This document shows positions 2,914 through 59,489 of a stretch of DNA of 64,000 nt, in pieces. The stretch spans positions 14,446,001 through 14,510,000 of the forward strand of contig OZ024766.1 of NCBI GenBank assembly GCA_964016885.1, written 5' to 3'. Positions within the stretch are counted from its first letter, which is position 1, and every line of letters starts with the position of its first letter. This DNA comes from Eledone cirrhosa. Its lineage: Eukaryota. The notes under the pieces were generated by a model that was not told the DNA's origin, made no database searches, and worked only from the letters and a program-made list of their open reading frames with translations. Both the position numbers and the translations under genes were made by a program.

Positions 2914-4373
2914 TGATGCACATGAAGGATGACATCTGTATAAAAAGGTACAGGGAACTCGAGGCTGTAGGGTGCCTCAAAAGAGGAAGACCTAGGCAGA
3001 AGTAGGATGTAATGACAAAAGGCCAACCTGGCTCAGCTGAACCCTCTCAATGGAGATGACACAGGACTGAGATATCTGGTACTACAACATACAACAAAGG
3101 ACCAGAGTGAACCTCACAAGGTGCAAGGCATGGTGCAGCCAATTGGCCTGACATCCCTCATAATGGGACCTCTCAGCTCCCAAATTACGGTTCCCCTGTG
3201 AACAGGGTACAGCAAGGCCAGCTGGCCAGACATTCCCCAAAACAGTGCCACCCAGTTCCACACTGTAAAAGTGGTTGGTACTAGGAAGGGCATCCAACAA
3301 CTGTAAAGACACAGCCACTACATAGTCAAAGCATGAGAGAACTGAGAGAGAAACTAGACATAAGAGGGATCAGATGTAGTGTGCAGGAGAGGAGATTGTA
3401 GTGGTATGGGGTGTGTATGGAGGGTGACCGCTGTATAAATATATTTAGGGCTCTCAAAGTTGATGGTAGCTCTGGAAGACTTCGAAGGAAGTGATAAAAG
3501 CTGACCTCACACAAATTCTCAAAGGAGACGACACAGTATTGAGATCTCTGGATCATGCTGTACTTCAGAAGACCTGCCCCACCTCCCATGTAAAATGATA
3601 TGAAACAAACATGTAGAGTACACACTAATCTGCACCAATCTTCTCCCTACACCTCACCATTCACCCAGTCCACACTGTAATGTGGTTGGCATTAGGAAGG
3701 GCATCCAGCTGTAGAAACCAAACCAAAATACAGATCCATGTGAACAAGACATGTTCACATGACCTGACATGTTTCATAACATGACACCTTGTCTAACATA
3801 TCAAGTGTGAAATAACAGACGTTAAATGATGATGATTATGATGATGATATACACATATATATATATTTGTATGTATATATATGTGTGTGTGTATACAGAA
3901 ATAATATATACACTACTTAATTATATATATATATACAACATATCAAAATAAATCAAATAAATTTAACAAACGACTGAATTTACCAAAATAGAATATTTTA
4001 TTTATTTATAATTTGGTGATAAACAAATATTTGGTAAAAGTAATTCTTCTTTTTCACGCTTTCTTTCCATCCTTTTTCCACACACACACACACACATTAT
4101 ATATGTATATATATACACACACACACAAGGGTATAAAGTGGTGGTGTAAAGTGATAGAGTTGCTGCCACAATAAAATACACCTTGTTCACTCTGTAAAGT
4201 AGTCATGAGGGTTCCACAATAAAATGCACCCTGTCCACTCTGTAAAGTGGTTGTCATTGAAAACATCATCCAGCAATGTCTGGTCTTGTTCCATGACAAC
4301 ACAACCCATCCAGTTAATGCTAGAATGGAACACAGATATAAGATGATGATGATGATGATGATGATGATAGAGA

Positions 4374-4579
4374 CTAGTTTTTCTCTGAATCTAGACAACC
4401 AAGAGCCTCAAAACAATCTGCTGTCTTTAGAGCCTCTTCCAGAGTGGCTATGGTGCATTCTTCTGGCTCACATTTTTCACCCCATCTGCGTAACATATGA
4501 AAAGCCTGTTTCACAACACTCTTAGGATTGTCATGCTCTATTTTGTCAAGTTCAATAGATGGAACCTCTAATTGAATAC
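4374..4579 (-). CDS. Exon 8 (terminal): death domain, C-terminal part
   Basis: attttgcag|GT; GIQLEVPSIELDKIEHDNPKSVVKQAFHMLRRWGEKCEPEECTIATLEEALKTADCFEALGCLDSEKN*. Fits the death-fold pattern W..(G)..L.....LD.I..D.P......A..ML..W......T...L..AL. Confidence 0.85.
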
Positions 4580-7500
4580 CTGCAAAATATAAAACAATAA
4601 GAAACCAATACTACAACAACAATAACAACATTAAACAGATTAGTTATATAAAATATGTATACCACAGGTTGTTGTAAATAACAAAGTAACTAGCTGTAGA
4701 GTAATAGAAATAATTAACATAAAAATTCTAAAATATTGTTCTATGTTTCCAAGGTTACCGACAAAAATAAAGAAGTTGAAGTGAGGAGAAGAAAGAAGAA
4801 CAAGATTAAAGAAAATAGACTTGAGAAATTTATGGCAAAGAAATGGCAGAAGTTTTTGTATTGTCAGAACTGGTGAAATAGTCAGGGTTCTGCCTAAAAT
4901 CTACCAAGACATAAATGACAAGTGACAAATATTTCCTCATCATCATCATCATCATTTTACATCCTCTTTTCACTGCTTGCAAGGGTGGGATGGGTCCTAT
5001 TCATCATCTCTCCATTTGACATGGTCCTTTGTCATCTACTCTGTGAGCTTCAGCGATCTGAGGTCTGCTCTCACCACCTCTCCCCATATTTTTGTGGTCT
5101 TCATCTACTGCGTCTTCCTTCCACTGGGATTTCTTGGCACTTCATTACTCAGCAGTCACCCGCCATGCATATCACACATCCATACCAACACAGTCTTCTC
5201 TCCTGCACTCTACATCTTATCCCTCTTATACACAGTTTTTCTCTCAACTCGTCTATGCTGGGTCATTCACACACATTGACATTGCACATCCAACGGAGCA
5301 TGCTTGCTTCATTTCTCTCCGGCCGTCACATTTCCTCTGCAGTTGCTGCCCATTTCTCACTACCATGCAACATCACACATCTCACACAGCCATCATATAA
5401 CCGGCCTTTCGTCTGTAGGGAGAAACCCTTCATTGTCAACAGAGGAAGCAGCTCCCTAAACTTCTTCCAACCCGTCCTTATTCTAGATACTATGGCCTCG
5501 GAACACCCTCCTCCCTTACTAATCTGATCACCTAGGTATCAGAAGCTATCAACTACCTCTATAGATCCTACCTGCATTTGAAAAATGTGTCTATCACTGC
5601 AATCTCTGTCAAATTTCCCTGTACATCTACTGCATACGTATTTCTCCCTACCTGTCAGTTTTCCTGCTATCCCACTACATCCCTTGTGTACCCAAGATCT
5701 GCATTGCGTACATTTTATAGAATTTATGCCAACTCCTTTTCTACATATCGAACATGGCGATATCCCTGACAGAATCAGAGTTTGGTCCTCTCTTCTACTT
5801 ATAAACACTTTTGTCTTAGCTAGGTTCCCTCTCAGTCTTCTTGATTCCAACTACTGTTTCCATAGCCAGAATTTATTCTCTAGCTCCTCTACTGATTCTG
5901 CTATAAGAACCAGATCATCAGCATAGAGAAGTTCCCATGGACAGCAAGTCTTAAACTCCTCTGTTATGGCTTGGAGGACTATAATGAACAAGAGCGGACT
6001 GAGGACCGAACCCTGATGTACACCTACACATATCTGGAATTCCTTACTAAACTCCATTCCTACTCTCACTTTACTGACAGCACCCCTGTACATAACTTGG
6101 ACTGTCCTCACAAGCCATTCCCCTACACCTAGTTTCCTTAAGGACCACCAGATGACAGATCGGGGTTCTCTATCAAAGGCCTTCTCTAGGTCAACAAAAG
6201 CTAAGTATAGTGGCTTATTCTTCTCTAAGAACCTGTCTTGTAGTTGTCTCACTAAGAAGAGGGCATCCTTGCTGCTAAATTTAATGGACATGTTGAGTAG
6301 CACGAAGATGACTCTTTTGGAGTACATGATGGCTAGAGGTATGGCTTGAAGGATCAAGACTCCTACAGTTCTGTGGTGTAAGTGACTTCAAGATATCAGC
6401 CAATCATTTGATCAGGTAGACATACAAGCTAGATTAATTTTATTCTCATCAGAAAACAAATAGACAGATGGTTGTGAATATTAAATCTGTTTCCAGAGAA
6501 GGAAGCGTTTGGTAGAGAGTGTGGACAAAGGAAGACTATAACCTTAACAATAAGACTACACCATCTCATAAGACAAAGATGGCTGAAGAACGAAAGAGTA
6601 ACAATCTCTAGGAATAATGTAGGGTGGTCACACCTGGAACACCCTCCATTATAAATCTGCAGATCATGGCAGAACCGAGACTAAATAACAATAACAACCT
6701 ATCTGTAAATTTAATATGTTTCAATAAAAACAAACAAAAACATTCCCATTAACTCACATGTTTACCCCAATACACCAACAGATTTTTATTCCCTGTTTTA
6801 GAAGACAATATTAGTTATATTGTGTCTTCTAATTTATTCATTTTTACCAATTCAGTTAAAAGTAAACTTTATAGAAATCAACAAGATACTGTAATCTTAT
6901 ACTCACCAACTGCATACCAATTTTCCACTAACAGTCCTGCTACCTTCCACAGGACTTTCTCATTCGGCTTTTGAGACCCTGAAAAAATATTTCCAAGTTT
7001 TTTCATTTTACTGTAAAGATTTTCTATTCCTGTTTATAATCTATATTTTATATTTTCAGACATTCCTATAATCAGAAGTCAACTAGTGATCACAATGGCT
7101 TTAGTCAATATTTTCTCTTCTTGTTATATCAGGTTATCTGAGTATTTAGACCCACAACAAAATATATTAAACTTTATAAATATTTTCTATCTATAAAAAC
7201 ATCTTATATATTCTAACAATGCTGTAATTATCTCATTCCACTAACAGCTGATTATACATTTGTTTTTCTCATAGCTTTGTCTTTCACTTATGCCAAATCT
7301 ACAATATAGCAACACTGTCCTCTCCTCTCTGCATTTTACTAATAAATATTCTGTTTATTTTCTTCTTAATTCTAATATCAGCCAAGTTGGTTATCAAAGA
7401 CCTAACAACAAATTCATGATAGCCGACATGAAATAGGAGTAGATACACCTGCTTTCCTTGAGAAAGGTTGATGTTGGCCATCTTTAGTGTAAACTGACCA

Positions 7501-10500
7501 CATCTGTGTTCACCAGAATGTCATCTGATTCATGTAATATTTACAAATATTTACATGTCACGTGTCCTCCATAATGATACAGGATCTTATCGGTGAGCAC
7601 TGATTATTCTATACAGGTGAGAAGGAAAGTGATAACAGGTGTCCTAAAACACTGTACACTTACACAAATCCTCATTAGCTCCCTTTAACAAGTCATCTCT
7701 ACATTAATGCAGTGAAAATATCTGAAAAGGATCCATGAAATGACCCCAACATTATAATTTATCTCCTACAGACCCCTTATATAAATAGATCATAGTTTCT
7801 CAAATCTTTGCTCACCCTCTCCATCAATACAGTGGACATCAGTAGCGGGAGAAGCCAACTACCTGAACATTTGAGGAAGTAGAAGTTACACCTGTCTTTT
7901 AGACATCTGTCAGTTCTAACAATGAGTGTTCCAATTGTTTGAATAACAGAACAGTTTACTCATGTAATTAAGGTGCAAATGGCTGAGTATTCCATAGACA
8001 TGTACACCCATAGCATAATTCTCAGGGAGATTCAGTATGGCACAGTGCGTGACAAAGCTGGTCCTTTTAATTACAGGTACAGTCCATCTTGTATTATAGT
8101 GAGAGTGGCTGAGTATTCCACAGACATATGTTCTCATAACGTGATTCTAAGGGAGATTCAGTGATATGTTGTATGTGATATAGCTGGCCCATTGAATTAC
8201 AGTAACAATAACGGTCACCATTATTATAATTCTCAGGGAGATTCAGCATAACAAAGTATGAAACAAAGCTGGTCTTTAGAATTACAAATACAACTCATTT
8301 TCCCATCTAAGTAGACTGAAGTAACATGAAATAAACTGTCTTGCTCAAAGATACAATATGTTCCTGGGAATTGAACTCAGAACCTTATGATCATGAGACA
8401 AACACACTAACCACTAAGTCATGAATGGAAATATACAGACAGATTATCAAATAATTACTTACTAAATTCATCCATGGATTTATTGGTGGCTTTATTAACC
8501 TTACATGGGGGACATACAGCTCTGTAAAAGGAAATAAAGATACAACTCACCAACATTAATTTACACCAAATATTACATTGTATACAAGTTTACAGAGATT
8601 ATGTGTGAAGGGCACAACAACCTCTCTAGTATTGGTGACATGATAAAATACAACCAGTACACTCTGTAATGTGGTTGCTAATAGGAAGGGCTTCCTGTCA
8701 TACAAAACTTTCCAAACAAAGGATAGAGAGGATTCTGTAGTGGTTTCAAAGACATGACAACATCCCTAGTGCTGGTGCCATGATTAAATCAGCAGTGCCT
8801 TTCATGATGATGATGATGATGATTTATAATAAAAGGTTGGATTTGAACTTAGAACGTTCAGGACCATAACTCTATGCTGCAAAGCATGGTGTGTGACGCT
8901 CTACTGATACTGCCAATCCATAATCAATAATAATAATGAAAATTATTGTGTACAATGCTCAGGTGCACTACAACTGGTATGACCGTAAAGCCAGGTGATG
9001 GTGAGACTGAGATACTGGAATAACCAAGCTCTCTCACCAGGGAGTATCAACTGGTATGACCGTAAGGCCTGGTGATGGTGAGGCTGAGATGCTGGAATAG
9101 CCAAGCACCTTCACATAAGAGCACCATGAGATACATCAGTAAAGCCAGGTGATGGTGAGACTGAGATACTGGAATAACCAAGCAGCCTCACCACCAGGAA
9201 CATCACCTGATACATTGGTAAGTGAAGCCACCAACAAGAACAAGAGCCTCATTGTCAATGGCTACCAACTCCCCCATGAAAGTATGAAATGAATCAAACA
9301 GAATAGAAATAATTGTTGTAAACTTACTGTGAAACAGCTTCATGTATTCGTGTGTTACCAGTTCTGTCTTCCTTTACCTGTAAACCAGCTGCTGCTCCAC
9401 TTAATTTCTCCATTTTAGCTGTTAATATATATATATATATCATCATCATTTAACATCCATCTTCCATGCTAGCATGGGTTGGACGGTTTTGTTTCACTTA
9501 AGGCAAGATTTTTCGGGAGACCGTGTCCTGCTCATACAGAACTGTCCCTGGCAGGTTTTCTATGGCTGGATGACATTCCTAACACCAACCACATTTACAG
9601 TGTGGACTGGGAGCCTTTTTACCATGTCTCCTACATGACCACTTTACAATGTGGACTGGGAGCTCTTTGTTGTGTCAACAACATGACCACTTTACAGTGG
9701 TCCTCCCATTTCTATGGGAGGACAGAGTAGGGTGTGTGGAGTGGGGTGTATATTGGGTTAAGAGGTACCTACTGACTGTAGGTTTAAGTTTGTATGCCAG
9801 AGAAAGCAGGTCTCCTGTACAACTGCATAGTGCCAAAGATCTCGATCCAGTGATATTGTCTTAGAGAGGTTTAAGTGAACAAGGTCAGTTTTTATCAGCT
9901 CGTCCCAGGTTTTCCTTGGTCTACCCACTCCGTAGCTTCCATCAATGTTCATTGCCCTGCACTTTTTTATACAGCTGTTGTCCTTCATAAACATCACATG
10001 ACCATACCAACACAATCTCCACTCCAGAACACAATATTTGACACCTCTTATGCTTAGTCTCTCTCTCAATTCGTTTATGCTTTGCCATTCGCTCACATTA
10101 CTATTACACATCCATCGGAGCATGCAAGCTTCATTTCTTTCTAATCTACACAAGTCTTCAGCACACGACACCCAAGTCTAACTACCATGTAACATTGCTC
10201 TTCGTATACAAGCATCATACAATCTGCCTATCACTTTTAGAAAAAAGCCTGTTGCCGCCAACAGCGGTATTAGCTCTCTGAACTTTTTCCATCCCGTTTT
10301 AACTCTGGCTACTTCAATTTCAGAGCACCCTCCACTACTGCTGATTTTGTCACCCAGTTAACGGAAAGTGTCTACTATTTCTATAGAACCATCTGGGCAG
10401 TTGAAATGAGATAGAATCCAATAGTTCTATAGAAATCATCATCATCAGTTTTACGTCCATTCTTCCACACTAGCATGGGTTAGACAGATTGTCCTGCTGT

Positions 10501-11063
10501 GGGCGATGTTAGGTCAGGTGACCTTGTCTTGCTCATACGGGAACTGATTTTGGCTTGATTTCTACAGCTGGATGTCCATATATATATATATATATATGCA
10601 AGTGTATTTTATTAAATGTAACTTAAAATTAAAACCTTCAATGTATGATTTTTGCCTATTAAAAATAATCTAAAAAAAGGGGACACCATTGCCTATGTGA
10701 CTCAAACTGACATTTGCCTTATACAGGACATCTTTACTTACCAGTTACAATCGACATATATATATATGGAGGCATATGGCTTAGTGGTTAGAGCATTGGC
10801 CTTGCAATCGAAAGGTTGTGAGTTCAATTCTCAGTGATGTGTTGTTTCCTTGAGCAAGACACTTTATTTCAGATTGCTCCAGTTTACTCAGCTGTAGAAA
10901 TGAGATGATAGGGACTATCATTTTTGCCACAGCAAAAAAGCACCCAGCACTCACTGTAAATCATGTTGGTGTAAGGAAGGGCATCCAGCTGTAGAAATCA
11001 AGCCAGAATCAGTTCCCGTCCCACCCTTGCAAGCAGGGAAAATGCGGACGTAAAATGAAATGA

Positions 11064-11116
<53 letters not shown>

Positions 11117-14100
11117 TACATACAAGGGTGAGTCAAAATATAATGCAATTTTTGTCATAGAAAACAACATCATACTTCGGGACTGGGCATATCAAAAGAT
11201 CAAAATAACGGAGGTAAACTTTGTTCCATCATTATGCTTTTCTTATTTTTCTGTTCAAGTTCTGATGAGATCATAGCTGTGGAATAATGGTTATCATCCG
11301 AAATATATATAACAGGGACTATGTATAAACAAAGTTAATTTTAACCTATTGACTTACACTTCTTGTTTATATATATGTGGAGGATATATAAAACAGGAAA
11401 CAAGAAGGTGTAAATAGGGGCATAAATATGAGGGAAGGGAGATAATTTGACAACATAACATAACTAGTATTTAATAGAATTTAATGTTGAAATACTAAGG
11501 AGATATTTAAAGAAAAAGGAAGAGAGGTGTTAGTATTATACTTAATGGTAGAATAAAAAGTGAATATAGGAGTGAAAAGAAATAGCATGCAAAATTAATG
11601 GAGAGGGTTAATATAGGAGGAATCATTAAAATTGAAATAATTAAGGGGAGTGATGTATATTAAGACAATGGAGGAAAGATAAATAAAAGTATATTATAAA
11701 ATAAAGGGTAAGAAAATGATAGAAGAAAAGAAAAGTAAGATTATCATGTTTAATGTCCAGGCTATGTATACGAGAGTGTAAGAGGTGAAATTATTAGGTA
11801 AATGTTCCTCAAGTGATTAATTTAAGTGTAGAGTTAAGGGGAGGTCTAGGTTGAGGGTCATACATAGGTGTGAAGAAATAGAGTGAAGAAGAAAAGGAAA
11901 GACTAAAGAGATGAAAGGAAAATAGGTGTTAATAAGTTATGCTAAGGTAAAAGGAGATTCAGCAATAGGAATACTAATTATAAAGATAAAAATAAAATAT
12001 AGATAGAAATTAAAATATTTTAAAAGAAGGGGATTATAAAGATATGGTCAAAGAGTATAAAATTAATCACAAAAGGGGAAAAGGCCTAGATAGGGAGGGT
12101 TAATACTAATAAGAAATAGGATAGAGGGATATTATAGGAAATGTATTATAAATAAATAATTATAATTCTCACAACTAATCTCCTATCTCTCCTCCTTGGT
12201 TAGTTGGTACACATAATATTGATATATATATATATAATGCAAGTATACAAACAGCAATAAATGTAAAGTAACTGAGAGAGACGCTGGGTATAAGAGGGAT
12301 CAGATGCAGTATGCTAGAGTGGAGAATGTGTTGGTTTGGTCATGTGATGTATATGAAGGACAGCAGTTGTATAAAAAGGTATAAAAAGGTACAGGATGGT
12401 CAAAATTGATGGAAGCTATGAAATAGGAAGACCCAGGAAGACCTGGGATAAGGTGATAAAAGCTGACCTTGCACACTTGCACCTCTCAAAGACAATGACA
12501 CAGGATAGAGATCACTGGTGTTAAGCAGTAATATACAATACACACTTTGCCATGTCCACAGACTCATACATCTAGTAGGCACCTCTTACTGTACCCACTC
12601 CTCTCCACACTACCTGTACACTGTGAATAAAACATATCCAGCCCACACTGTAAATGGTTGTGTAAGAGCCACAACAAAAAGCACCCAGCACACATTGTAA
12701 ATGTGGTTGGCATTAGGAGGGACATCCAGCTGTAGAAGCCTAGCCAGAAACAGTTCTATGTGAGTAAAACACGGTCACCTGACGCTACTTGCATCAAATG
12801 GGACAACCCGTCTAACCCATGCTAGCATGAAAAATGGACAGTAAACGATAAAAATTTGTTTTTGTACAAGAAAACACAAATATAGGTGAAGATAGAATAA
12901 AAGTTCAAATATAAGATTTATGACTATAAACCATTTAGACAGGTTTGAATAACAGAACAGCTTACTCATAAAATTAAGGTGCAAAAGATACAATATGTTC
13001 CTGGGAATTGAACTGGGAATTGAACTTATGATCATGAGACAAACACACTAACCACTAAGTCATGAATGGAAATATACAGACAGATTATCAAATAATTACT
13101 TACTAAATTCATCCACCGTACATACAGTCATTCCACACTGTGGACAATGTTCAATTGTGGAACAACATTTTCCACAAGCCACTTTATGTGGACATGGAGT
13201 GGATGTATTGGTGGCTTTATTAATCTGACATGGAGTGGATGTATTGGTGGCTTTCTTAATCTGACATGGAGTGGATGTATTGGTGGCTTTCTTAACCTTA
13301 CATGGGGGACATACAGATCTGTAAAAGAAAATAAAGATAAAACTCACAAACGACATTAATTTACACCAAATATTACATTCTGGATTCTGTAGTGGTTTCA
13401 AAGACATGACAACATCCCTAGTGCTGGTGCCATGATTAAATCAGCAGTGCCTTTCATGATGATGATGATGATGATGATGATTTATAATAAAAGGTGGGAT
13501 TTGAACTCAGAACGTTCAGGGCCATAACTCTATGCTGCAAAGCATGGTGTGTGACGCTCTACTGATACTGCCAATCCATAATCAATAATAATAATGAAAA
13601 TTATTGTGTACAATGCTCAGGTGCACTACGACTCATCAAAGGTGCATGTATTGTACATAGAGTAATGTAGAAATATCAGGAAAGTGAACAGTGATTGAGT
13701 CAAGATACACACACACATGCGCGCATGTATGGAGGTGAGGATATCAGGTGTAGTGTTGGAGTATTTCAGGAAGGATGGAGGTGTTAAAGGATGCAGTGTC
13801 CTGACAGCTAACAACTGATGCAGGTAGTTGGTTCCATGCTTCAGTAACTCTGAGCATGAAAAGATGTTTCTGAAAGTCATGGGGTCTGTACTGTTTTCCT
13901 GCTATTTCTTGGCTTAAAGCAGAAATCAGTTGTCAAACTTCCACAACTTCTGTATTGAGGGTCTATTTTTGTTGTTGTTGTTGATGTTCTTCAACAGGAA
14001 TGGTAGGGGAAGACATGGTAGTTGGTTTGTGTTGTTGTTCAACAGCAATGGTATAGGAAGACACACAGGCCAGGGACTGAAAGGACCAATTTGGTAGCTG

Positions 14101-14730
14101 CACCTTTTCCTAGAATCCATCCATCATCGAAATAGGGTGTCTCTTTTTTTGACCTGGGATCTTTGGAATGTTTATGGCACATTGACGACAGAGAGAAACG
14201 TGACATTTACCACATTGAATCTATTTTGGAAATAGTTCTTGGGTTCAGTACATAGATGACAGACGTGATTTTCCTGGCAATCAATCTTCTATTTTGGGAC
14301 AGAGAACAGTTTTATTACACACCCCTCATCTATGGATGTCACCATAGCAATTATGTTCTGTCTGTCCATCCATACAATACAACAATAGGTAAACAAATAG
14401 ATATGTCTAAGTATAACACACTTGTTAAGGAGATCAATAAAATATATTTTCTTTCTGTTTTCCTATTCTACGTGTGTGTGTATATAAAAAGATCTACACA
14501 TGTATATATAATTAAGAGATGTATATAGGCTAGAAATGAAGTCTATGTCCAGTGTTTATAATGTAGGTACGATAGTTACTATAGTTTCTCACACACGAAA
14601 CAGGATTTCCTTGCACTTTCTGTGTGTATATATATGTGTGTGTGTGTATATATATATGTGTGTGTGTGTGTGTATCTACATATATATGTGTGTGTGTATC
14701 TAGGTATATATATATATATGTGTGTGTATC

Positions 14731-14761
<31 letters not shown>

Positions 14762-14841
14762 GGGTGTGTGTATGTGTGTGTATCTACATGTATATATATA
14801 TATAGATACACACACACACCCATATATATATATATGTAGAT

Positions 14842-14880
<39 letters not shown>

Positions 14881-17800
14881 GACACACACATACACATATA
14901 TATATATATGTGTGTGTGTGTGATCTACATATATATGTGTGTATGTGTGTGTGTATCTACATATATACATATATGTATGTGTGTGTGTGTGTGTATCTAC
15001 ATATATGTGTGTGTGTGTGTGTATATCTACATATATGTGTGTGTGTGTGTGTGTGTATCTACATATATATATATGGGTGTGTGTGTGTATCTACATATCT
15101 ACATACATATGTGTGTGTGTGTACATATGTGTGTGTGTGTATCTACATACATGTATGTGTGTGTCTGTGTGTGTATCTACATGTGTGTGTGTGTGTCTAC
15201 ATATGTGTGTGTGTGTATCTACGTATATATGTGTGTGTGTGTCTGTGTGTATCTACATATGTGTGTGTGTGTATATCTACATATATATGTGTGTGCGTGT
15301 GTGTATCTACATATATATGTGTGTGTGTGTGTATCTACATACATATATGTGTGTGTGTGTGTATCTACATACATATGTGTGTGTGTGTATATCTACATAT
15401 ATGTGTGTGTGTGTATCTACATATATGTGTGTGTGTGTATCTACATATGTGTATGTGTGTGTATCTATATATATGTGTGTGTGTGTGTATCTACATATGT
15501 GTGTGTGTGTGTATCTACATATATGTGTGTGTGTATCTACATATATATGTGTGTATGTGTGTATATCTACATATATGTGTGTGTGTGTGTATCTACATAT
15601 ATATGTGTGTGTGTGTATATCTACATATATGTGTGTGTGTGTATCTACATATGTGTGTGTGTGTGTGTGTATCTACATATGTGTGTGTGTGTATATCTAC
15701 ATATATGTGTGTGTGTGTATCTACATATGTGTGTGTGTGTATCTACATATGTGTGTGTGTGTATCTACATATATATGTGTGTGTGTGTGTATATCTACAT
15801 ATATGTGTGTGTGTGTGTGTGTATCTACATATGGGTGTGTGTGTGTGTATCTACATATCTACATATATATGTGTGTGTGTGTATCTACATACATATGTGT
15901 GTGTGTGTGTGCATATGTGTGTGTGTGTGTGTGTGTACATATGTGTGTGTGTGTATCTACATATATGTGTGTGTGTGTGTACATATGTGTGTGTGTGTAT
16001 CTACATACATATATGTGTGTGTGTGTGTACATATGTGTGTGTGTGTATCTACATACATATGTGTGTGTGTGTGTGTATCTACATATATGTGTGTGTGTGT
16101 ACATGTGTGTGTGTATCTACATACATATATGTGTGTGTGTGTGTGTGTATCTACATATATGTGTGTGTGTGTGTACATGTGTGTGTGTATCTACATAATA
16201 TATGTGTGTGTGTGTGTGTGTGTATCTACATATATATGTGTGTGTGTGTATCCACATGTGTGTGTGTGTGTATCTACATATATGTGTGTGTGTGTATCCA
16301 CATGTGTGTGTGTATCTACATATATGTGTGTGTGTATCTACATATGTGTGTGTGTGTATATCTACATATATATGTGTGTGTGTGTATATCTACATATGTG
16401 TGTGTGTGTATATCTACATATATGTGTGTGTGTGTAACTACATATATATGTGTGTATGTGTGTATATCTACATATATGTGTGTGTGTGTATCTACATATA
16501 TGTGTGTGTGTGTATCTACATATGTGTGTGTGTGTATCTACATATGTGTGTGTGTATCTACATATGTGTGTGTATCTACATATATGTGTGTGTGTATCTA
16601 TATATGTGTGTTTGTGTATCTACATATGTGTGTGTGTGTATCTACATATATGTGTGTGTGTATCTACATATGTGTGTGTGTGTGTATATCTACATATATA
16701 TGTGTGTGTGTGTGTATATCTACATATATGTGTGTGTGTGTGTGTGTATCTACATACATGTGTGTGTGTGTGTGTATCTACATATATTTGTGTGTGTGTG
16801 TACATATGTGTGTGTGTGTATCTACATACATATATGTGTGTGTGTGTGTATCTACATATATGTGTGTGTGTGTACATATGTGTGTGTGTGTATCTACATA
16901 CATATATGTGTGTGTGTGTGTATCTACATACATGTGTGTGTGTGTGTGTATCTACATATATGTGTGTGTGTACATATGTGTGTGTGTGTATCTACATACA
17001 TATATGTGTGTGTGTGTGTGTGTATCTACATATATGTGTGTGTGTGTGTATCTACATATATATGTGTGTGTGTGTATCCACATGTGTGTGTGTATCTACA
17101 TATATGTGTGTGTGTGTATCCACATGTGTGTGTGTGTGTATCTACATATATATGTGTGTGTGTGTGTGTATCCACATGTGTTTGTGTATCTACATATATG
17201 TGTGTGTGTGTATCTATATGTGTGTGTGTGTATATCTACATATGTGTGTGTGTGTATATCTACATATATGTGTGTGTGTGTATCTACATATGTGTGTGTG
17301 TGTGTATATCTACATATATGTGTGTGTGTGTGTGTATCTACATATGGGTGTGTGTGTATCTACATATCTACATATATATGTGTGTGTGTGTGTATCTACA
17401 TACATATGTGTGTGTGTGTACATATGTGTGTGTGTGTATCTACATACATATATGTGTGTGTGTGTGTGTATCTACATATATGTGTGTGTGTGTGTGTACA
17501 TATGTGTGTGTGTGTATCTACATACATATATGTGTGTGTGTGTGTGTGTGTATCTACATATATGTGTGTGTGTATGCACATATGTGTGTGTGTGTGTATC
17601 TACATGTGCGTGTATGTGTGTGTATATCTACATATGTGTGTATGTGTGTGTATATCTACATATATGTGTGTGTGTGTGTATATCTACATATATGTGTGTG
17701 TGTGTGTATCTACATATATATGTGTGTGTGTGTGTGTATCTACATATGTGTGTGTGTGTGTGTGTGTATCTACACATGTGTGTGTGTGTGTGTATCTACA

Positions 17801-20800
17801 TATGTGTGTGTGTGTGTGTGTATCTACATATGTGTGTGTGTGTGTGTGTATCTACATATATGTGTGTGTGTGTGTGTATGTACATATGTGTGTGTGTGTG
17901 TGTGTATCTACATATGTGTGTGTGTGTGTGTGTATCTACATATGTGTGTGTGTGTGTGTATCTACATATATGTGTGTGTGTGTGTGTATGTACACATGTG
18001 TGTGTGTGTGTGTATCTACATATGTGTGTGTGTGTGTGTGTATCTACATATGTGTGTGTGTATCTACATATATGTGTGTGTGTGTGTATCTACATATATG
18101 TGTGTGTGTGTGTGTATGTACATATGTGTGTGTGTGTGTGTGTATCTACATATGTGTGTGTGTGTGTGTGTATCTACATATGTGTGTGTGTGTGTGTATC
18201 TACATATATGTGTGTGTGTGTGTGTGTATGTACACATGTGTGTGTGTGTGTGTATCTACATATGTGTGTGTGTGTGTGTGTATCTACATATGTGTGTGTG
18301 TGTGTGTATCTACATATATGTGTGTGTGTGTGTGTGTATGTACACATGTGTGTGTGTGTGTGTATCTACATATGTGTGTGTGTGTGTGTGTATCTACATA
18401 TGTGTGTGTGTGTGTGTGTATCTACATATATGTGTGTGTGTGTGTATCTACATATGTGTGTGTGTGTGTGTGTGTGTATGTACACATGTGTGTGTGTGTG
18501 TGTGTACACATGTGTGTGTGTGTGTGTGTGTATATCTACATATGTGTGTGTGTGTGTGTGTATATCTACATATGTGTGTGTGTGTGTGTATCTACACATG
18601 TGTGTGTGTGTGTGTGTGTATGTACACATGTGTGTGTGTGTGTGTGTATATCTACATATGTGTGTGTGTGTGTGTGTATATCTACATATGTGTGTGTGTG
18701 TGTGTATCTACACATGTGTGTGTGTGTGTGTGTGTATGTACACATGTGTGTGTGTGTGTGTGTATGTACACATGTGTGTGTGTGTGTGTGTGTGTATGTA
18801 CACATGTGTGTGTGTGTGTGTGTATGTACACATGTGTGTGTGTGTGTGTGTGTGTATGTACACACATATGTGTGTGTGTGTGTGTATGTACACATGTGTG
18901 TGTGTGTGTGTGTATGTACACATGTGTGTGTGTGTGTATGTACACATGTGTGTGTGTGTGTGTACATGTTGTTGTTTAGACAATACTTACAGCAGTAAGT
19001 ATATGTATTAAGTCCCATCATTAAAGAGACAACATAAGGAGGCCCCATGGTGGCATCTTGACATTAATGGCTGAATAAAAACCAGAGATTATTGAGTAAA
19101 AGAAAGAAATGTTGATATTCCATATCATTGTTAACTTACTGTTCCATTGTTCCTCCTGCAGCTCTGTCACCTGGAACAGGGCTGGCATGAGACCCCAACA
19201 TCTCTATTATAGCTGGGTATCCTTCACGTTTGGCCAGTTGTAAAGCTGTCAGACCTTTGACATTTACAATACTTAAGTCTGTTTCTGGCCTTGACAGCAA
19301 CACCTCCACAACCTCTGTATCTCCCATATATACAGCCCCATGTAAAGGCGTATTACCATTACAACTCCTCACATTCAGGTCAGCTCCCCCGGCTATCAAT
19401 AGCTTTACCATGGCAACACTCCTCCCCCACCCCCCTACAGCCCAATGTAAAGGTGTTAACCCAATTCTATTTCCTTGATTGATCTGAAAATGTAAAAATA
19501 TATTAAATATGGTGGGAGTGAGAGTGAAGGGGAGACTATGTAGTAAGAGAGGGGGCGAGTGGAGGTGTGGGGAGAGAATTAACAATAGACGAGAGAGAGA
19601 GAGAGGGGAAGAGAGAGTGAGAGCGGTAAATAGAGAGTGAGTAAGACAGAGTAAAAGAGTGAGAGAGAGGGAGAAATAGAGAGCGAGGGGAGAAAAGAGG
19701 GAGAGAGAGAGGAAGAAAAGTGAGAGAGAAAGAGAGAGTGAGAAATTCGTATCTGTACCCCCCCCCCGTCCTTCTTAAATTTTTGTATTAAATAAATAGA
19801 TTAATTCACACACACACACACACACACACACGTAGACAGATACACATACACACAGAAATACATAGAAAGATACACATATATACTCACACACAGACACATA
19901 CATACATACATACACAGACATATTCGTAGACCGATACACACGTATATACACACAGACAGTAACACACATACACACACAGACAGTCACACACGGACACACA
20001 GACAGTCACACACGGACACACAGACAGACACACACATACACATACACACACACAGACAGTCACACACACACACAGACAGTCACACAGACACACACACACG
20101 GACACACAGACACAAACAAATCCATACAGAGTGGTAGTAGCAGTAAGAGTAGACAACAGTGATAGTAGGAGGAAGGTGTGACGTCATAAGATAGACGCTA
20201 CAGAAAGAAATGGTGGAAATATGTAAATGTCTCTAATTTGAGTTAAGTTTGACTTATTTCTCTCATTTAATGACAGAAATATGACAATAATCTATATATA
20301 TAATTCCCGTTCTGTGTGTGTGTAAAAGAGTTTCACTTGGAAAATATTCCATCCATCTCTGTCAAATTAAACACATAGCCAAAATAGGCTACGGTCTGTA
20401 ACATAAAGAAAAAATTATTTCATAATGATTAATTTCGAAGTCACAAACTTCGATTTTATAATCTTATAGGCTTTTGCACTAACAAATTCCATGACGGCCA
20501 TTAAAGAGAGAGAGCGTTCCTTTTACACACTTCTTAACTGTCCCCCTTCCACAACACGACGTTATGGGATGGTATGTGTATGTGCGTGTGTATATGTGTG
20601 TGTATGTGTTTGTGTGTGTATGTGTGCGTGCATGTGTGTGTGTGTGTGTGTAATTTCCATAACGGCCAGAGAGAGAAGGATGTGTGAGAAGGAGATAGAA
20701 AGAGAGGAGTGAAAGAGAGAGAGAGAGTAAAATAAAGAAAGAGAGGAGTGTGTGTGACTTAACTCTCCCCCTTCCACAACGTCACGTCTTGGGATTATGT

Positions 20801-20811
20801 GTGTGTGTGTA

Positions 20812-20843
<32 letters not shown>

Positions 20844-23761
20844 TATGTGTGTGTGTGTGTGTGTGTTTGTGTGTATGTGTGTATGTGTGTGTATGTGTGT
20901 GTGTGTATGTGTGTATGTTTGTGTGTGTATGTGTGTGTGTGTACGTGCGTATGTGTGTGCGTGTGTGCATGTGTGTGTATAAATGTGTTAATTGTAAGAA
21001 ATAACAGACGATACTTTTTATTCAAAAAATTAAACTCTAAAGCAGTTTTGATGTCATAAATCATATTTTCAAAGTGAAAATCGTCATTTCTTTAATACTT
21101 ATTCAGAGGTTGAAATATATTTACTGTTTGTCTTTTGGTTTTTAATCAAATATTTACACATTGCTCAACCGACACTGCTAAACACGATATTAGCAAAATT
21201 ATTTTGTAAGTATGAAAATCTAATATATAATTCCCGTGTAGAAAAAGCAGATGATAAAATATACTTTTTCGTCTTGCTTATTATTACAAAAATTTACACA
21301 TTGTACACAACTATTTATTTCTTTTAATTGATTTGTATCAGCTTTATTCAATTACATATTTTCGGTAGAATGCCTCGAAAAAGAAAGAGTAACATTGGAA
21401 AAAAAACAAAAAATGCTTTTGCTTTGCGTTCTTTGCGCGCAAGCGAAACAGAAGAACAATGTGTGCTACGGCGTGCTCGCAATGCTGCTTCTACCTCGAT
21501 CGCCAGAGCATTACAAACAACTGAACAAGCAGAACTCCAGCGTGCTCACAATGCTGCTTCTACTTTGAACATCAGAGCATTACAGAAAGCTGAACAAGCA
21601 GAACTCCGGCGTGCTCGCAATGCTGCTTCTAATTCCAATAGCCGTGCTTTAGAGACTGTTGACCAAAGGGCAACAAGGCTTGCGGCTGATTCTCAACGGA
21701 AAATGCGTACTTATGTCTTTCCGAGGGATTCTTCCTGTTACTGGTCTAAGAAAGGTTTTCAATACAACCCCCAAGAGGACTACGCATCCCATCCACATAT
21801 CATCATTGGTAGTATGTCAACTGTTTGCGTCCATTGTAATGCAATGAGGTGGCCAGCGGAATCTACCGGTATATGTTGCTCCAATGGAACGGTTAGATTG
21901 CCTTATTTACAAGTCGGTGCCGAACCTTTGAATTCTTTGCTGCTTGGAGACCACCCTGATTCTAAACACTTTTTCAGAAATATAAGAGCCTACAGTTCGG
22001 CTTTCCAAATGACAAGCTTTGGTCATACACCAATAAAAGATGGGAATTATATGCCCACATTTAAAGTGCAAGGCCAAATTTACCATCAAATAGAATCACT
22101 TATTCCACAAGATGGCAAAGAACACAGTTTTCTCCAGATCTACTTTATGGGCAACGGACCTGAAGAAATTGCACGAAGGGCTTCAGTTGCTAAAGGAACG
22201 ACACCTTCTCTTCTGCAGCCCCTTCAATATATGCTTCATTCCATAAACCCGTACATCACCATTTTCAAAACTGCTTTACAACGTAGAGATGCTGACAACA
22301 ATCAATACAAGGTTGTCATTCGAAATGACCGCGATCCACCAGGGCAACATCAGGGTTGCTTTAATAGACCCCAAACCGATGAAGTTGCGGTGATTATAAC
22401 ACGTCCTAATCAGAGCGCTTCAAACCGTGATATTGTTATTGAATGGCAGGACTCGCATCTTCAAAAAATAAATGAACTTCATCCCGCATATGATGCTCTC
22501 CAGTATCCATTGCTGTTCCCCTTTGGCGACGATGGCTACCGCATTGATTTGCAAAAGTGTAATCCTGTAAGTTTAATGCCTCTTACACCAGGGAAAACCA
22601 TTTCACAAATGGAATTTTATGCATTTGTGAAAAACGACGTCAACATTCTGCATAGAACACGGATGCTCCACAATCAATACTGTGTAGACATATTTGCTAA
22701 GATTGACACTGAACGCCTCCAATGGATAAGACATCATCAAAAGGAACTGCGTTCAGAAGAATACGGCAATCTACGTGACAAAGTAAACCGAAATGATCAG
22801 GCTAATGCTTCGGATGTTGGGCTTTCTGTCATTCTCCCATCATCATACACTGGAGGCCCCCGTTACATGCATGAAAAAATGCAGGATGCTCTGACCTATG
22901 TCCGCCATTGTGGCCGTCCTGATCTTTTTATCACCTTTACATGCAATCCAAAATGGTTTGACATCCAGTCTCATTTACTGTTTGTCTTTCGGTTATTAAT
23001 AAAAAAAATTACACATTGTTCAACCGACACGGCTAACGATACATTTCTCTATGTTCACATTTTAATGACACATATCTGTAAATAAAACTTGCTCTTTTTG
23101 AATACCGTCTCATTTTGTTTTATTGAAAGAGTTGATCAGGTAAAATTATCCTCCAAGTTAAACATACAACACGGAAATTGACCATTAACATTGCAGCCCT
23201 ACCAAGAACTGACACCGTCCAATGGACGGGGGTCATTTGCTAGTTAAATATAAATTAACATGTTGCCAATGGATTCTCTACATTTTATTTTGTCTCTCTT
23301 GGAAAACTATTTCCATGTGAAAAGAAAGGTTTAATTTGTCGTCTGTTTGACAGGGTCTTTATTGAGGGGGGTGCAAGACAGATGCGGTGGCAGTGTTAGT
23401 AGAAAATTACAGAGAGAGTGAGGGAGGTGTTTATTGATAGTGGCGAAGGTGGAGAACGAGAGGGAAGACAGGGAGGGGGAGGGAATGAGGGAGAGGGAGG
23501 GAACGAGAGAGAGAGAAAAAGAGAAAGAGGGATGGAAAGAAAGAGAGAGAGGTAAGAAGTTAGAGAGAATGAGGAAAGTTTATCTGTCTGTGTGGCTGTC
23601 TGTCAGTCTAGCATATAGTTGACAAGGGAGATAATCAATTGGACAAACTTGGTGATATTTCGTTTTGAAAGAACATTTTTTGAGAGAGAGAGAACGTGTG
23701 AGAGAGTGAGAGAGAGAGAGAGAGATAGAGAGAACATGTGTGAGAGAGAGAGAGAGAGAAC

Positions 23762-23800
<39 letters not shown>

Positions 23801-23830
23801 GGAGAGAGAGAGAGAGAGAGAGAGAGAACA

Positions 23831-23863
<33 letters not shown>

Positions 23864-25502
23864 ACATGTGTGAGAGAGAGAGAGAGAGAGAGAGGTAGAT
23901 AAATATATAAATAGAGTGAGGGTGAGAGATAGATAGCTAGGTAGACAGACAGATAGATAGATAAATTGCCAAGGGTAGATAGGTGGATATTATACATAAA
24001 TTGATAAATATACAATGATTTGGAAATATTTTCAGTATTTATCAATAGTGATGGTCATATTGAACAATAATCAATAGAATCAGACAAATCTACAGAGTGT
24101 ATATGTTGACCCACCTTAATAGCAGGTGTGTTGATTAACAACTGTGCAATATCTGTACAGTTGTTAAGGACGGCCATGTGGAGTGGAGTATTCCCTTCTT
24201 TATTCAGACAATTTGCATCCACTCCAGAGGACAGCAAGGATTTCACCTCTTCATAGTTTTTTCTGAAAGTAGTAGAAATAAATACAAATACACATATATA
24301 GGAAATGAAGGCACATGGCTTAGTGGTTAGTGTGTTCTACTGAAGATCATAAGGTTGTGAGTTTGAGTCCTGGGGATGGCTTGTGTCCTTGAGCAAGACA
24401 CTTTATTACATGATGATCCAGTCTACTCAGCTAGCAAAACTGAGTTGTACCAGTAATACAAAGGGTCAGCCTTGTTAATCTGCTTATCCTTGAGAACTAC
24501 AATAAAGGTACACATTCATGTCTGTAAAGTGGTTGGTGATAGGAAGGGCATCCAGACCAGGATACTGGAATAGCCTAGCACCCTCATCTAGGAACATCAA
24601 CTGATACATCAGTAAGGACCAGTGATGGTGAGGCTGAGATGCTGAAAGAGCCAAGCACCTTCACCGAGGAGCATCAAGTGACACATCAGTAAAGCATGGT
24701 GATGGTGAAACTAAGATACTGCAATAGCCAAGTACCCTCACCTATGAGTATCAACTGATATATCAATAAAGCATGGTGATGGTGAGGCTGAGATACTGGA
24801 ATAGCCAAGCACCTTTACATAAGAGCACCATGAGATACATCAGTGAAGCCAAGTGATGGTGAGACTGAGATACTGGAATAACCAAGTTCTCTCACCAGGG
24901 AATATCAACTGGTATGACCGTAAGGCCTGGTGATGGCGAGGCTGAGATGCTGGAATAGCCAAGCACCTTTACATAAGAGCACCATGAGATACATCAGTAA
25001 AGCCAGGTGATGGTGAGACTGAGATACTGGAATAACCAAGCTCTCTCACCAGGGAGTATCAACTGGTATGACCGTAAGGCCTGGTGATGGTGAGGCTGAG
25101 ATGCTGGAATAGCCAAGCACCTTTACATAAGAGCACCATGAGATACATCAGTAAAGCCAGGTGATGGTGAGACTGAGATACTGGAATAACCAAGCTCTCT
25201 CACCAGGGAGTATCAACTGGTATGACCGTAAGGCCTGGTGATGGTGAGGCTGAGATGCTGGAATAGCCAAGCAGCCTCACCACCAGGAACATCACCTGAT
25301 ACATTGGTAAGTGAAGCCACCAACAAGAACAAGAGCCTAATTGTCAATGGCTACCAACTCCCCCATGAAAGTATGAAATAAATCAAACAGAATAGAAATA
25401 ATTGTTGTAAACTTACTGTAAAACAGCTTCATGTAGTGCTTTGTTACCAGTTCTGTCATCCTTTAGCTGTAAACTAGCTGCTGCTCCACTTAATTTCTCC
25501 AT
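4374..25502 (-). CDS. Spliced gene: ankyrin repeats x5 + C3HC4 RING + death domain (~406 aa; 356 aa if exons 5-6 are skipped)
   Basis: Manually joined exons 25502-25417, 24262-24115, 19483-19140, 13318-13104, 9418-9328, 8521-8463, 6978-6907 and 4579-4374. All introns are GT-AG, phases 2,0,2,1,2,1,1 are consistent, and the total is 1221 nt ending in TAG. Confidence 0.8.
4935..6270 (-). mobile_element. RTE-clade LINE fragment (RT plus PHD-like insert)
   Basis: LYLAFVDLEKAFDR, GVHQGSVLSPLLF, ELLYADDLVL; Cys-rich CSICRKGVGINSIKCTQCRSWVHKGCSG; stops present; (GAT)n tail near 4935-4955. Confidence 0.9.
6907..6978 (-). CDS. Exon 7: death domain, N-terminal helices
   Basis: attttttcag|GG; (R)SQKPNEKVLWKVAGLLVENWYAV(G); donor G|gtgagt; phase 1-1. 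Confidence 0.8.
8463..8521 (-). CDS. Exon 6: internally deleted duplicate of the RING exon
   Basis: cttttacag|A GCT GTA TGT CCC CCA TGT... = AVCPPCKVNKATNKSMDEF; donor A|gtaagt; same phases as exon 4. Confidence 0.6.
9328..9418 (-). CDS. Exon 5: diverged duplicate of exon 1
   Basis: Same 91-nt length and splice sites as 25417-25507; (T)KMEKLSGAAAGLQVKEDRTGNTRIHEAVS(Q); in frame. Confidence 0.6.
9440..10410 (-). mobile_element. RTE LINE 3' fragment with tail
   Basis: LERNEACMLRWMC, WRLCWYGHVM, GRPRKTWDEL; 3' UTR motif ggttggtgttaggaa..catccagc and (GAT)n. Confidence 0.85.
10768..10905 (+). mobile_element. tRNA-derived SINE family B
   Basis: A box TGGCTTAGTGG, B box GTTCAATTC, core TCCTTGAGCAAGACACTTTATTTC. 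Copies at about 24308, 48626, 50350 and 8310-8420(-). Confidence 0.75.
13104..13318 (-). CDS. Exon 4: C3HC4 RING finger (IAP/MIB spacing) with internal 36-bp triplication
   Basis: cttttacag|A; SVCPPC-[KVKKATNTSTPC]x3-PHKVACGKCCSTIEHCPQCGMTVCTVDEF; donor A|gtaagt, phase 1. Confidence 0.85.
14620..18968. repeat. 4.3-kb compound microsatellite: (GT)n punctuated by ATCTACATAT or ATGTACAC
   Basis: Direct inspection; source of the spurious CVY ORFs. Confidence 0.97.
19140..19483 (-). CDS. Exon 3: ankyrin repeats 3-5
   Basis: acattttcag|ATC; motifs GLTPLHWAV, GNTPLHGAV, GLTALQLA; donor CA|gtaagt, phase 2. Confidence 0.92.
20291..23243 (+). mobile_element. Helitron, internally deleted, both termini present
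   Basis: 5' A|TCTATATATATAAT at 20291; 3' hairpin CCGTCC-aat-GGACGG (23215-23229) followed by CTAG|T at 23240-23243; contains a Rep-Hel N-terminal ORF. Confidence 0.85.
21370..23085 (+). pseudogene. Truncated Helitron Rep-helicase ORF (N-terminus to Rep motif 1)
   Basis: MPRKRKS start, basic coiled repeats, Cys cluster CVHC...ICCSNG, FKVQGQIYH, YDALQYPLLFPFG, ILPSSYTGGPRYM, RPDLFITFTCNPKW. Homology ends near 22980; no HUH motif or helicase. Confidence 0.9.
24115..24262 (-). CDS. Exon 2: ankyrin repeats 1-2
   Basis: ctactttcag|A; KNYEEVKSLLSSGVDANCLNKEGNTPLHMAVLNNCTDIAQLLINTPAIK; donor AAG|gtgggt, phase 0. Confidence 0.9.
24560..25305. repeat. 77-bp minisatellite with A/B alternation (154-bp higher-order repeat)
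   Basis: GATGG(T/C)GAG(A/G)CTGAGAT recurs at 24855, 24932, 25009, 25086, 25163 and 25240; a shorter paralog lies at about 8972-9220. Confidence 0.9.
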
Positions 25503-25507: not shown

Positions 25508-27666
25508 CTGTTAATATATATATATTTATATATATACACACACATGTATGCATATACATATGCGAGTGTGTTTTATTAAACGTAACTTAACGTTAAAAGC
25601 TTAAATGTAAGATTTTTGCCTATGAAAATTAATCTAAAAAAAGTGGACACCATTGCCTATGTGACTTAAACTCACATTTGCCTTATACAGGACATCTGTG
25701 CTTACCAGTTGCAATCAACATATATATATATATATATATACATATATGTATATATATATATATATATATATACACTCCCGTCCCACTAACCCCACCTCCA
25801 CCGCCATCTACACCACCCCTTTGATGTAAAGCTATGTTTGTACCACAACATCCAGTCCTAAATAAATGAGGTTGTGTAGTTGTCACGACAAAAAAACACA
25901 GTCCACACTGTAATGTGGCCGTGTAGGTAACACGGTAAAAACCTCCCAGTTCCACACTGTAAACGTGGTTGGTGTTAGGAAGGGTACCCAGCCGTAGAAA
26001 ACCCGCCAGACAGTCCTGAGCAAGACAACCAACCTCGCCTCAAGTGGGACAATTCCCGTCCAGACCCATGCTAGCATGGAAAATGGACGTTAAACGATGA
26101 TGATGATAATGATATATATATATATGGGTGTGTATGTGTATGTATATATATATGTGTATGTATGTGTATATATATATGTGTATGTATGTATGTGTTGATA
26201 TCTGTTTGTATGTAGTATATATGGACTGTAGATATATTTACATATAGGGAAGTGAATATGTGAGCCAGCATGTCCCCCCCCCCCACCCTTCCTGTCCCAA
26301 ACCAATATCAACAACACATCTTTGACAAATCTTCCCAAACTATCCTTCTTTTCTCTTTTTCCTGTCATCCCATTCTTATCAAAAGACATGTATCTTACAC
26401 CTCATTAAAACCCAGACAAGCACCTAAATTCATCTTTGATATAGAAATTTGTAGAAGATATTCTTTATGGATTTGGAAGAGTTGATTCAGCTATGCCATT
26501 ATATACTCATCAAAGGTCAGCTAATGAAATAAAACCAGCAGGAGAGTATGTTTACAACTACCTTCTCAAACACCCTTATCTTACAACCTCACCATTTTCT
26601 GAGTGTATATATGTGTGTGTATGAGTGTATGTGTGTGTGTGTATGCTTTAATTCCTATGGACCTTCATCATCATCAACACTCATTAACACCACATGCCAA
26701 CCCCAGACACATCCAAATCTCTCTCTTATATATAGTCACACATTTCAACACAACCTGATCTCAGTTTGACAATCTCCACAGACAGAAGAATGCGAGAAAG
26801 TTCTCCAACCCAAGTTAACCAGGAATCTATAAAATTCTTCCCACCAAAGTTAAAGAACTTACTGGATCTATCAACTCATAATATTATAATATTATAAAAA
26901 TTAAATCAAACATGTTTTAACACTACAAATGACATCATTCTTTTCCTTTTTTTCAAATATACCTAACTGTACCAAGGATCTCACACATTTTCCAATATAT
27001 ATATACATATATATACACATACAAGGGTGAGTCAAAATATAATGCAATTTTTGTCATAGAAAACATACTTCGGCACTGGGCATATCAAAAGATCGAAATA
27101 ATGGAGGTAAACTTTGTTCCATCATTATCTTTTCCTGCTTATTTCAAGATTCAGTTCTATTAAAATGTCCAAATGTCAATACTTCCAGCTACGATATAAT
27201 GGACGCTATATCACATCGCTTATATTTCCATCACTAATTTTCTCCTTTTTCGTTTTCATAAAATTTCACCATGATGCAGTTTATATATAATATCATCTTT
27301 TTTAAATGTATCATGGATTACTTTACTGATTACAGAAGAAAGTGTAACACACTCTCTTCAATTTCTGTGGATATTGTCAATTACAATTTTATTTGAGGTA
27401 TCATATCTACATGTATGTATATTTGTGTATAATATCTATATACACACTACACATGCCAGCAGAAAACCAACCGAAGGGTGTATATAACAGCAACAACAAC
27501 AAAACAAGACAAAGATTACCAGGTAACTTACTTTTTCGTCTATTTTACATTGTTTAGTCTTATATCACTTTCCACATTTTACGTATGTGTGTGTATTTAT
27601 ATATATATATATATATATATGCTGTGGTTATCCCGATCTTACTCGGGATCTCTCACACACACACAT

Positions 27667-29172: not shown

Positions 29173-29334
29173 TACATATATATATATATATATATAATAT
29201 TAATTTGAGTATTTTGGGGGTAATTAGCGACACTTCAGTATGCAGGTTAGAGCACTATATGCGACCAGTGCTTTGAGAAAACAACACCATACTTCGAGAT
29301 GGGGCATATCAAAATATCAGAAGTAAGCTTTACT

Positions 29335-59351: not shown

Positions 59352-59489
59352 CTTTCTGACAACTGTTTCCTTCATAACCTGGAGCACATCTACCCCTTGA
59401 ACAGATCCCTAATTCCACATTACACCTGTTGTTATCTTCACAATGACACACCTGATCACAGTTGGCACCAAGTCTTCCACTACTGCACA
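59352..59489 (-). CDS. EGF-like exon, copy C
   Basis: Identical to copy A by eye, including splice sites. Confidence 0.8.

Follow-up and report, generated by a model that had tools for sequence, protein, structure and literature searches.

Does a gene whose product has ankyrin repeats, a RING finger and a death domain in a single chain encode a ubiquitin ligase, or has this combination been put to another use? The locus that raises the question lies on the minus strand of a window of 64,000 nucleotides (G000:C27:14446001-14510000, the whole stretch that we analysed) in the 3.0-Gb genome of the octopod Eledone cirrhosa. A first-pass annotation had seen there eight exons joined in frame by GT-AG introns, and had proposed a lineage-specific E3 ligase or adaptor coupled to death signalling. 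It gave no exon list, and the coordinates used below are a reconstruction made here.

The gene and its transcripts

The features of the locus are the following.

25417..25502, minus strand: exon 1, counted from the ATG; N-terminal half of ankyrin repeat 1
24115..24262, minus strand: exon 2; ankyrin repeats 1-2, Pfam Ank above cut-off
21328..23082, plus strand: Helitron Rep fragment in intron 2 (Pfam Helitron_like_N, 1.6e-31)
19140..19483, minus strand: exon 3; ankyrin repeats 3-5 and linker, Pfam Ank above cut-off
13104..13318, minus strand: exon 4; RING of MIB/IAP type, with a 36-nt unit present three times
9328..9418, minus strand: exon 5 (E1'); second copy of exon 1, with a phase-1 acceptor, beginning a collapsed second Ank-RING module
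8463..8521, minus strand: exon 6 (E4'); copy of the RING exon with an internal deletion, keeping the first two of its cysteines
6907..6978, minus strand: exon 7; N-terminal part of the death domain
4374..4579, minus strand: exon 8; remaining death domain and stop, Pfam Death
3981..4373, minus strand: 3' UTR, with AATAAA at 4006-4001; the homologous site carries the poly(A) tract in retrocopies

Once joined, the eight exons give 1221 nt and 406 aa with no internal stop and GT-AG ends at 7/7 introns, so that the structure first proposed for the gene is recovered; a six-exon form without exons 5 and 6 (356 aa) is likewise in frame. The ATG of exon 1, which has a phase-1 acceptor AG 5 nt 5' of it, is a candidate 5' end, and this exon has 15 matches in the genome. 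The five ankyrin repeats that had been announced are all found in the translation, with Pfam support on exons 2 and 3 but not on exon 1 alone; taken singly, exons 1 and 7 gave no Pfam match at all. Exons 5 and 6 are the remnant of a second Ank-RING module and not new linker exons. A paralog on C26 has two whole Ank-RING modules followed by the death exons.

Three other candidates were not retained. A 57-nt exon at 11276-11220 would keep the frame, but its donor is weak and it overlaps a dispersed repeat (also found at 27.1 and 29.3 kb); a cysteine-rich frame at 14220-14113 is intronic and has weak Pfam matches only; and EGF-like exons upstream, frame-compatible with exon 1, were taken as a separate gene. 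An EGF-like exon lies upstream in 1 of the 13 stretches searched, namely that of the near-identical sister copy. The Helitron fragment of intron 2 is found in six C27 copies and not in the C26 copy.

The C-terminal region is a true death domain, as had been claimed. Exon 8 scores 25.5 bits against Pfam Death (PF00531, cut-off 22.6), its predicted model is helical (pLDDT 79), and the structure-search rows listed for this model are death domains down to rank 26, with a best E of 0.08 and no row at E<=0.001. A homologous-protein search with exon 8 gave no match among 23 candidates. The intron between the two death-domain exons is in phase 1, at a position common to a gene of the same genome that carries a RHIM and a death domain (on C24); no RHIM-like motif was seen in the 406-aa translation.

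Transcription was studied with four runs of a single study (X1-X4) mapped to positions 4000-14450, exons 1-3 lying outside; no run is annotated as RNA, and X1 was counted as such solely from its splice-like joints. Among the 15 joints listed, out of a set with 1287 more, two in X1 have intron ends of the model, 4579/6907 (exons 7 and 8) and 6978/8463 (exons 6 and 7), with short sides of 21 and 27 letters; neither was seen among the joints listed for X2-X4. Because the genome has the 3'-terminal 27 nt of exon 6 only once, the exon 6/7 joint most likely comes from the window copy. X1 also has a loose end at exon 5. The loose end at the acceptor of the RING exon is a consensus of two contigs, from which we infer two ends joined to a RING exon, one of exon-1 type and one of exon 3. 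X1 thus shows the predicted junctions on both sides of exon 7, and no joint from exon 4 to exon 5 or 7 is among the 15 listed in 4000-14450. That RING and death exons belong to one gene in this family, in line with the first-pass annotation, is shown by processed retrocopies of a paralog at C1:208.684-208.690 Mb. In these retrocopies exon 3 is joined to the RING exon twice, the RING exon to exon 7 twice and exon 7 to exon 8 eight times, and poly(A) follows the homologous 3' end in two cases. Together with the X1 joints, they show that the family splices Ank-RING-Death, and they make a full-length transcript of the window copy likely.

Relatives and probable donor genes

The paralogs that the first-pass annotation had thought worth looking for exist: 42 candidates for exon 8 were scored and 36 match, of which 27 are exon-type copies of the family, mostly on C27 and C18, 8 belong to the retrocopy array and 1 is an outlier on C24. 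The RING exon has at least 29 matches (150 of 1667 candidates scored), and exon-3-type donors occur exactly 11 times. The order RING, exon 7, exon 8 is kept in 15/19 non-retro stretches, which were picked around exon matches. Many C18 copies consist of RING and death exons, with no ankyrin exon within 10-30 kb upstream, and several paralogs carry stops or frameshifts. Upstream of the gene lies a duplication of 24.9 kb with an identity of 99.87%.

The architecture, in which the first-pass annotation had recognised no characterised protein, is already present in databases for three Octopus species. A death-exon profile matched 56 proteins among 1.84 billion; at least 8 of the 47 scanned have Ank, RING and Death above the Pfam cut-offs and at least 13 of the 47 at E<=0.05, in a scan where five families per protein were listed for part of the set. 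Thirty proteins were looked up, and all family members among them are from Octopus sinensis, O. vulgaris or O. bimaculoides (such as XP_029652081.1, XP_036355694.1, CAI9744078.1 and XP_014780589.2). The idea of a lineage-restricted protein is supported, with members in these three species and in Eledone. Most of the Octopus members are auto-named 'MIB2-like' or 'MIB1-like', and the label 'ankyrin-3-like' also occurs. They have in common with the window gene the Ank-RING-Death order and the same death-domain clade, whereas the RING repeat expansion and the two-module genes were seen only in the Eledone genome. In a tree of 43 death-domain rows, 24 rows from Octopus and from this genome form the family clade (support 96/96); the own-genome copies form a subclade within it (99/96), which argues that they expanded separately. 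Among 120 matches listed of 289, exon 3 found generic ankyrin proteins only, while the MIB-like region of P0158 found three Octopus proteins and six weak others, and an Atlas search with a RING-death fragment gave no usable match. We found no description of the family in the literature accessible to full-text search; the gene-family tables of cephalopod genome papers could list it.

Where do the parts come from? A gene at C24:25.7-25.8 Mb, with two MIB_HERC2 matches and two RINGs, is on that basis taken to be MIB2. Its last ankyrin exons are 36-50% identical to Octopus members, and its RING1 reaches 61.1 bits with the RING profile of the Octopus family, the runner-up among 26 RINGs reaching 41.6; with the own-genome RING profile, two IAP-like RINGs (29.6) rank above it (28.0). 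The RING tree groups the family weakly with RING1 of MIB1/MIB2 (support 80/83) and not with the terminal MIB RINGs (L185/L187), in a comparison of the 26/30 fetched RING loci and 15/19 Octopus proteins that fitted the extraction pattern. The RING exon ends ten codons and one base past the last cysteine, in the same phase, in the family and in MIB2 RING1. For the death domain, the RHIM-bearing gene, at about C24:15.35-15.36 Mb, scores 42.7 bits with the death-exon profile, against 20.0 for the runner-up among 11 death-domain loci; upstream of its death domain is a VQIG, which we take to be the core of a RHIM motif. The death-domain tree does not resolve the link of the family to RIP1/IMD-like genes. 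Most likely, the family arose from the ankyrins and RING1 of MIB2 and from the death domain of a RIP1/IMD-like gene with a RHIM, and in the simplest history that we infer, phase-1 shuffling would have swapped the terminal RING of MIB2 for two death-domain exons.

The product shares with MIB2 and MIB1 ankyrins that are directly followed by a C3HC4 RING, as well as the 3' boundary of the RING exon, and MIB2 heads the Atlas structure rows of an Octopus member. Ankyrins with a C3HC4 RING homologous to RING1 are clear in Octopus members and weaker in own-genome copies. The product of the window gene differs in that its locus has no MIB_HERC2/ZZ region (PF06701 has 9 genomic matches, 0 of them on C27 and none near the window gene), and in that the protein carries five hypervariable ankyrins and ends in a death domain, with no terminal catalytic RING. 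A search for the MIB-specific insert found no trace of it in the lineage of the window gene, and also missed MIB2 itself. Judged by its domains, the protein is not a Mind bomb, lacking two defining features, the MIB_HERC2-ZZ region and the terminal RING. RIP1/IMD-like adaptors of octopods with RHIM and death domain (such as XP_052833014.1 and the C24 gene) have the closest death domain by profile and the same phase-1 intron, but they possess the RHIM-like motif and have neither ankyrins nor RING. ANKDD1A/B, ankyrins, p105/p100 and DAPK, all conserved, low-copy genes, likewise combine ankyrins with a C-terminal death domain (Atlas feature matches 0.92), but there is no RING in between and their death domain is not the closest to that of the window.

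Selection on the ankyrin face

Six near-identical C27 paralogs of this one genome were compared, with minimum changes counted. Exon 2 has accumulated 20 nonsynonymous and 0 synonymous changes (P=0.006 vs neutrality) and exon 3, whose repeat-3 loop also varies by in-frame indels, 51 and 2 (P=4e-5), that is, at least 71 against 2 for the two exons together; exon 1 has 5 and 0 (P=0.26). Neither exon 7 (21 and 5) nor exon 8 (40 and 12) departs from neutral. Under a codon model, omega is about 30 for exons 2 and 3 (LRT 42.9, P=6e-11), a magnitude made imprecise by the two silent changes. For the death exons it is 1.2 (P=0.49 vs 1), a value that also fits relaxed constraint on these sequences. The distance between paralogs is 5.6% in exon 2 and 6.4% in exon 3, versus 0.2-1.1% in the flanking introns, and in the death-domain exons, too, it is far above that of their introns. 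From its nearest sister, the window copy differs at 2/2701 upstream bases vs 18/344 in exon 3.

The changes are concentrated on one surface. As binding face we used ankyrin positions 33, 2, 3, 5, 10, 13 and 14, a scheme that we take to be that of DARPin design and that agrees with the positions varying among the repeats of 6MOL; gapped columns and repeat 1 were not counted as face. Variable positions make up 22/28 of the face and 26/118 of the remainder (Fisher P=4e-8), or 18/24 vs 30/122 when position 10 is excluded and six DARPin positions are used. Codon positions 1-2 hold 56/64 of the variable columns. The four-gamete test is failed by 153/325 informative pairs, implying tract exchange between copies or repeated mutation at the same sites. 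We read this signal of selection as one of conflict, which by itself is not one of immunity.

A proposed sensor-adaptor and its alternatives

What would such a protein do? With somewhat more confidence than doubt, we propose that it is a variable intracellular sensor-adaptor, and not an E3 ligase. The hypervariable ankyrin face would bind a changing, probably foreign, protein; this ligand would cluster the death domains, which would then recruit RIP1/IMD- or FADD-type partners and feed NF-kB or caspase signalling, the RING being reduced to a spacer or scaffold. We favour this proposal because the RING that the family kept is the likely counterpart of RING1, and because the subfamily with the fastest ankyrins let its RING decay. 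Octopus hemocytes have been surveyed for genes of such pathways, with no mention of ankyrin or Mind bomb in the accessible part of that report (PMC4199593).

A lineage-specific E3 ligase, in which the ankyrins would choose substrates and the RING would ubiquitylate these or partners of the death domain, seems to us rather unlikely. All eight zinc ligands are present in the window RING, which reads C-x2-C-x35-C-x-H-x3-C-x2-C-x6-C-x2-C, and in paralogs with a single 36-nt unit the spacing is canonical and the RINGs resemble those of XIAP/cIAP (E 4e-5); the Octopus proteins with all three domains above cut-offs also count for a ligase. Positively selected E3 substrate adaptors are, moreover, known in nematodes and plants. 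However, the x11 spacing that had been reported for exon 4 is found in single-unit paralogs only: in the window, the unit is tripled and loop 1 is therefore x35, longer by 24 residues. Exon 4 scores 16.7 with Pfam zf-C3HC4_3, under the cut-off of 27, and its last Cys is followed by Gly, not by the Arg of terminal MIB RINGs. The predicted structure of this RING, with a pLDDT of 39, speaks for neither side. Canonical spacing is found in 0/6 C27 copies, three having 2, 3 and 7 units and the other three having lost the C-x-H, all in frame and with ankyrins that diversify alike. No BIR domain was detected on the six exons scanned by Pfam, nor among the matches listed for homologs. A RING of Mind bomb type is supported by the weak grouping with RING1 of MIB1/MIB2, canonical spacing being absent from the window copy. 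In human MIB2, according to PMC7815719, the second RING alone is needed to ubiquitylate cFLIPL, and mutation of the first has no effect. The E3 half of the original proposal thus suffers from a RING that groups weakly with RING1 and is expanded or broken in all six C27 copies, whereas the adaptor or sensor half gains from the gene family and from the selection on the ankyrins.

A decoy or inhibitor, absorbing effectors aimed at MIB2 or at death-domain proteins, or capping RIP1/IMD-FADD assemblies and so damping the signal, is in our judgement unlikely. It would agree with the loss of the catalytic part, with the many copies that have RING and death exons and no ankyrin exon nearby, and with death-domain exons diverging far beyond their introns, but if a conserved host complex were simply to be inhibited, a hypervariable ankyrin face would not be needed. 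Both parts would also be drawn from genes of one pathway, as human MIB2 acts on RIPK1 and cFLIP according to the same report (PMC7815719). Positive selection being blind to its cause, the conflict might instead lie outside immunity (over self/non-self recognition, gametes or a selfish element), death being its output, and the retrocopies do imply germ-line transcription of a paralog; we regard this as improbable, given that the probable donor genes are of innate-immune and death-receptor signalling and that a link to gametes is otherwise nil. Lastly, debris of segmental duplication, transcribed and decaying with no function, would explain the collapsed second module, the broken RINGs, the paralogs with stops or frameshifts, the near-identical upstream duplication and the death-domain omega near 1, yet it is very improbable, since decay cannot yield a ratio of 71:2 with enrichment on the face, the compared exons of 6/6 C27 copies have no stop or frameshift, the rearranged exons are in frame and the unique exon 6 is spliced.

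As in NLRs, TRIM5/finTRIM and adaptors of the F-box and MATH-BTB kinds, tandem clusters are shaped here by birth and death and by gene conversion, and a positively selected repeat surface that would bind ligands is coupled to an effector. The window family has no NTPase, no B-box/coiled-coil/B30.2 and no F-box; its variable surface is made of ankyrins and its effector is a death domain. If the sensor-adaptor proposal is right, the family would work as other diversifying immune sensors do, through an architecture not described for them. More tentatively, and as a possibility that we would not yet rely on, these proteins may be natural DARPin-like cytosolic immune receptors of octopods, germline-encoded and recombining, derived from MIB2 by exon shuffling, which would sense pathogen proteins through their ankyrins, with a death domain of RIP1/IMD type and without the NTPase switch of NLRs.

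To our knowledge, cephalopods have no adaptive immunity, and the basis of their specific cell recognition is poorly known. The name 'E3 ligase MIB2-like' that Octopus proteins bear in databases is probably misleading. In this family one can follow how a new signalling protein would have been assembled out of two genes that belong to one pathway. It also provides cloneable candidates in which an arms race has left a strong mark on a surface, and since DARPins have made the binding chemistry of such surfaces well understood, isolated ankyrin domains could serve as bait for the ligand.

Sequence context of the gene in the window

The following features lie in introns of the Ank-RING-Death gene or upstream of it.

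59353-59499, minus strand: EGF-like exon, phase 1-1
54865-55011, minus strand: EGF-like exon, phase 1-1
49524-49670, minus strand: EGF-like exon, phase 1-1
29250-30317, minus strand: 21-nt tandem repeat, 314 codons open
27433-28506, plus strand: LINE reverse-transcriptase-like fragment
21328-23082, plus strand: Helitron Rep fragment in intron 2, 585 codons open
9761-10357, minus strand: LINE reverse-transcriptase-like fragment
5329-6387, minus strand: LINE reverse-transcriptase-like fragment

The three EGF-like exons are almost identical to one another, each lying within tandem duplications of about 5 kb, and the acceptor of exon 1 is frame-compatible with them; their source is probably a separate multi-EGF gene located upstream. 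The 21-nt repeat, common to the C27 copies of the gene, reads as a heptad, coiled-coil-like pattern in what is an open frame, not an established exon. From their sequence, the reverse-transcriptase-like fragments, intronic and upstream of the gene, look like LINE remnants.

Related domain combinations elsewhere

Three further contigs of the same genome (G000) carry related arrangements.

C18:5.3-12.8 Mb (stretches L061-L064, L067, L068, L072-L074): roughly a dozen RING-plus-death units
C1:208683000-208692500 (stretch L056): processed retrocopies of one paralog, arrayed head to tail
C24:15.35 Mb (stretch L127, 9030-9805 and about 8 kb upstream): RHIM-like motif and two-exon death domain

RING spacing is canonical in the C18 units, and no ankyrin exon was found in the 10-30 kb upstream of them. 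The C1 array preserves two isoforms, one ankyrin-only, which ends in a last exon and poly(A) of its own, the other Ank-RING-Death, its death part multiplied as a 325-nt unit. The C24 gene is a RIP1/IMD-like adaptor gene, and MIB2 is located on the same contig. In Octopus vulgaris, one gene model (P0121, CAI9744465.1) brings together a RING, leucine-rich repeats and two death domains, a mix that may be a gene-model artefact or a further shuffled variant.

Divergence of the death-domain exons

Among the C27 copies, the death-domain exons (window 6907-6978 and its counterparts in paralogs L057 and L060) are 11-18% different, silent sites included, whereas the adjoining introns differ by 1-4%. This contrast may reflect either exchange limited to the exons or their resistance to homogenisation.
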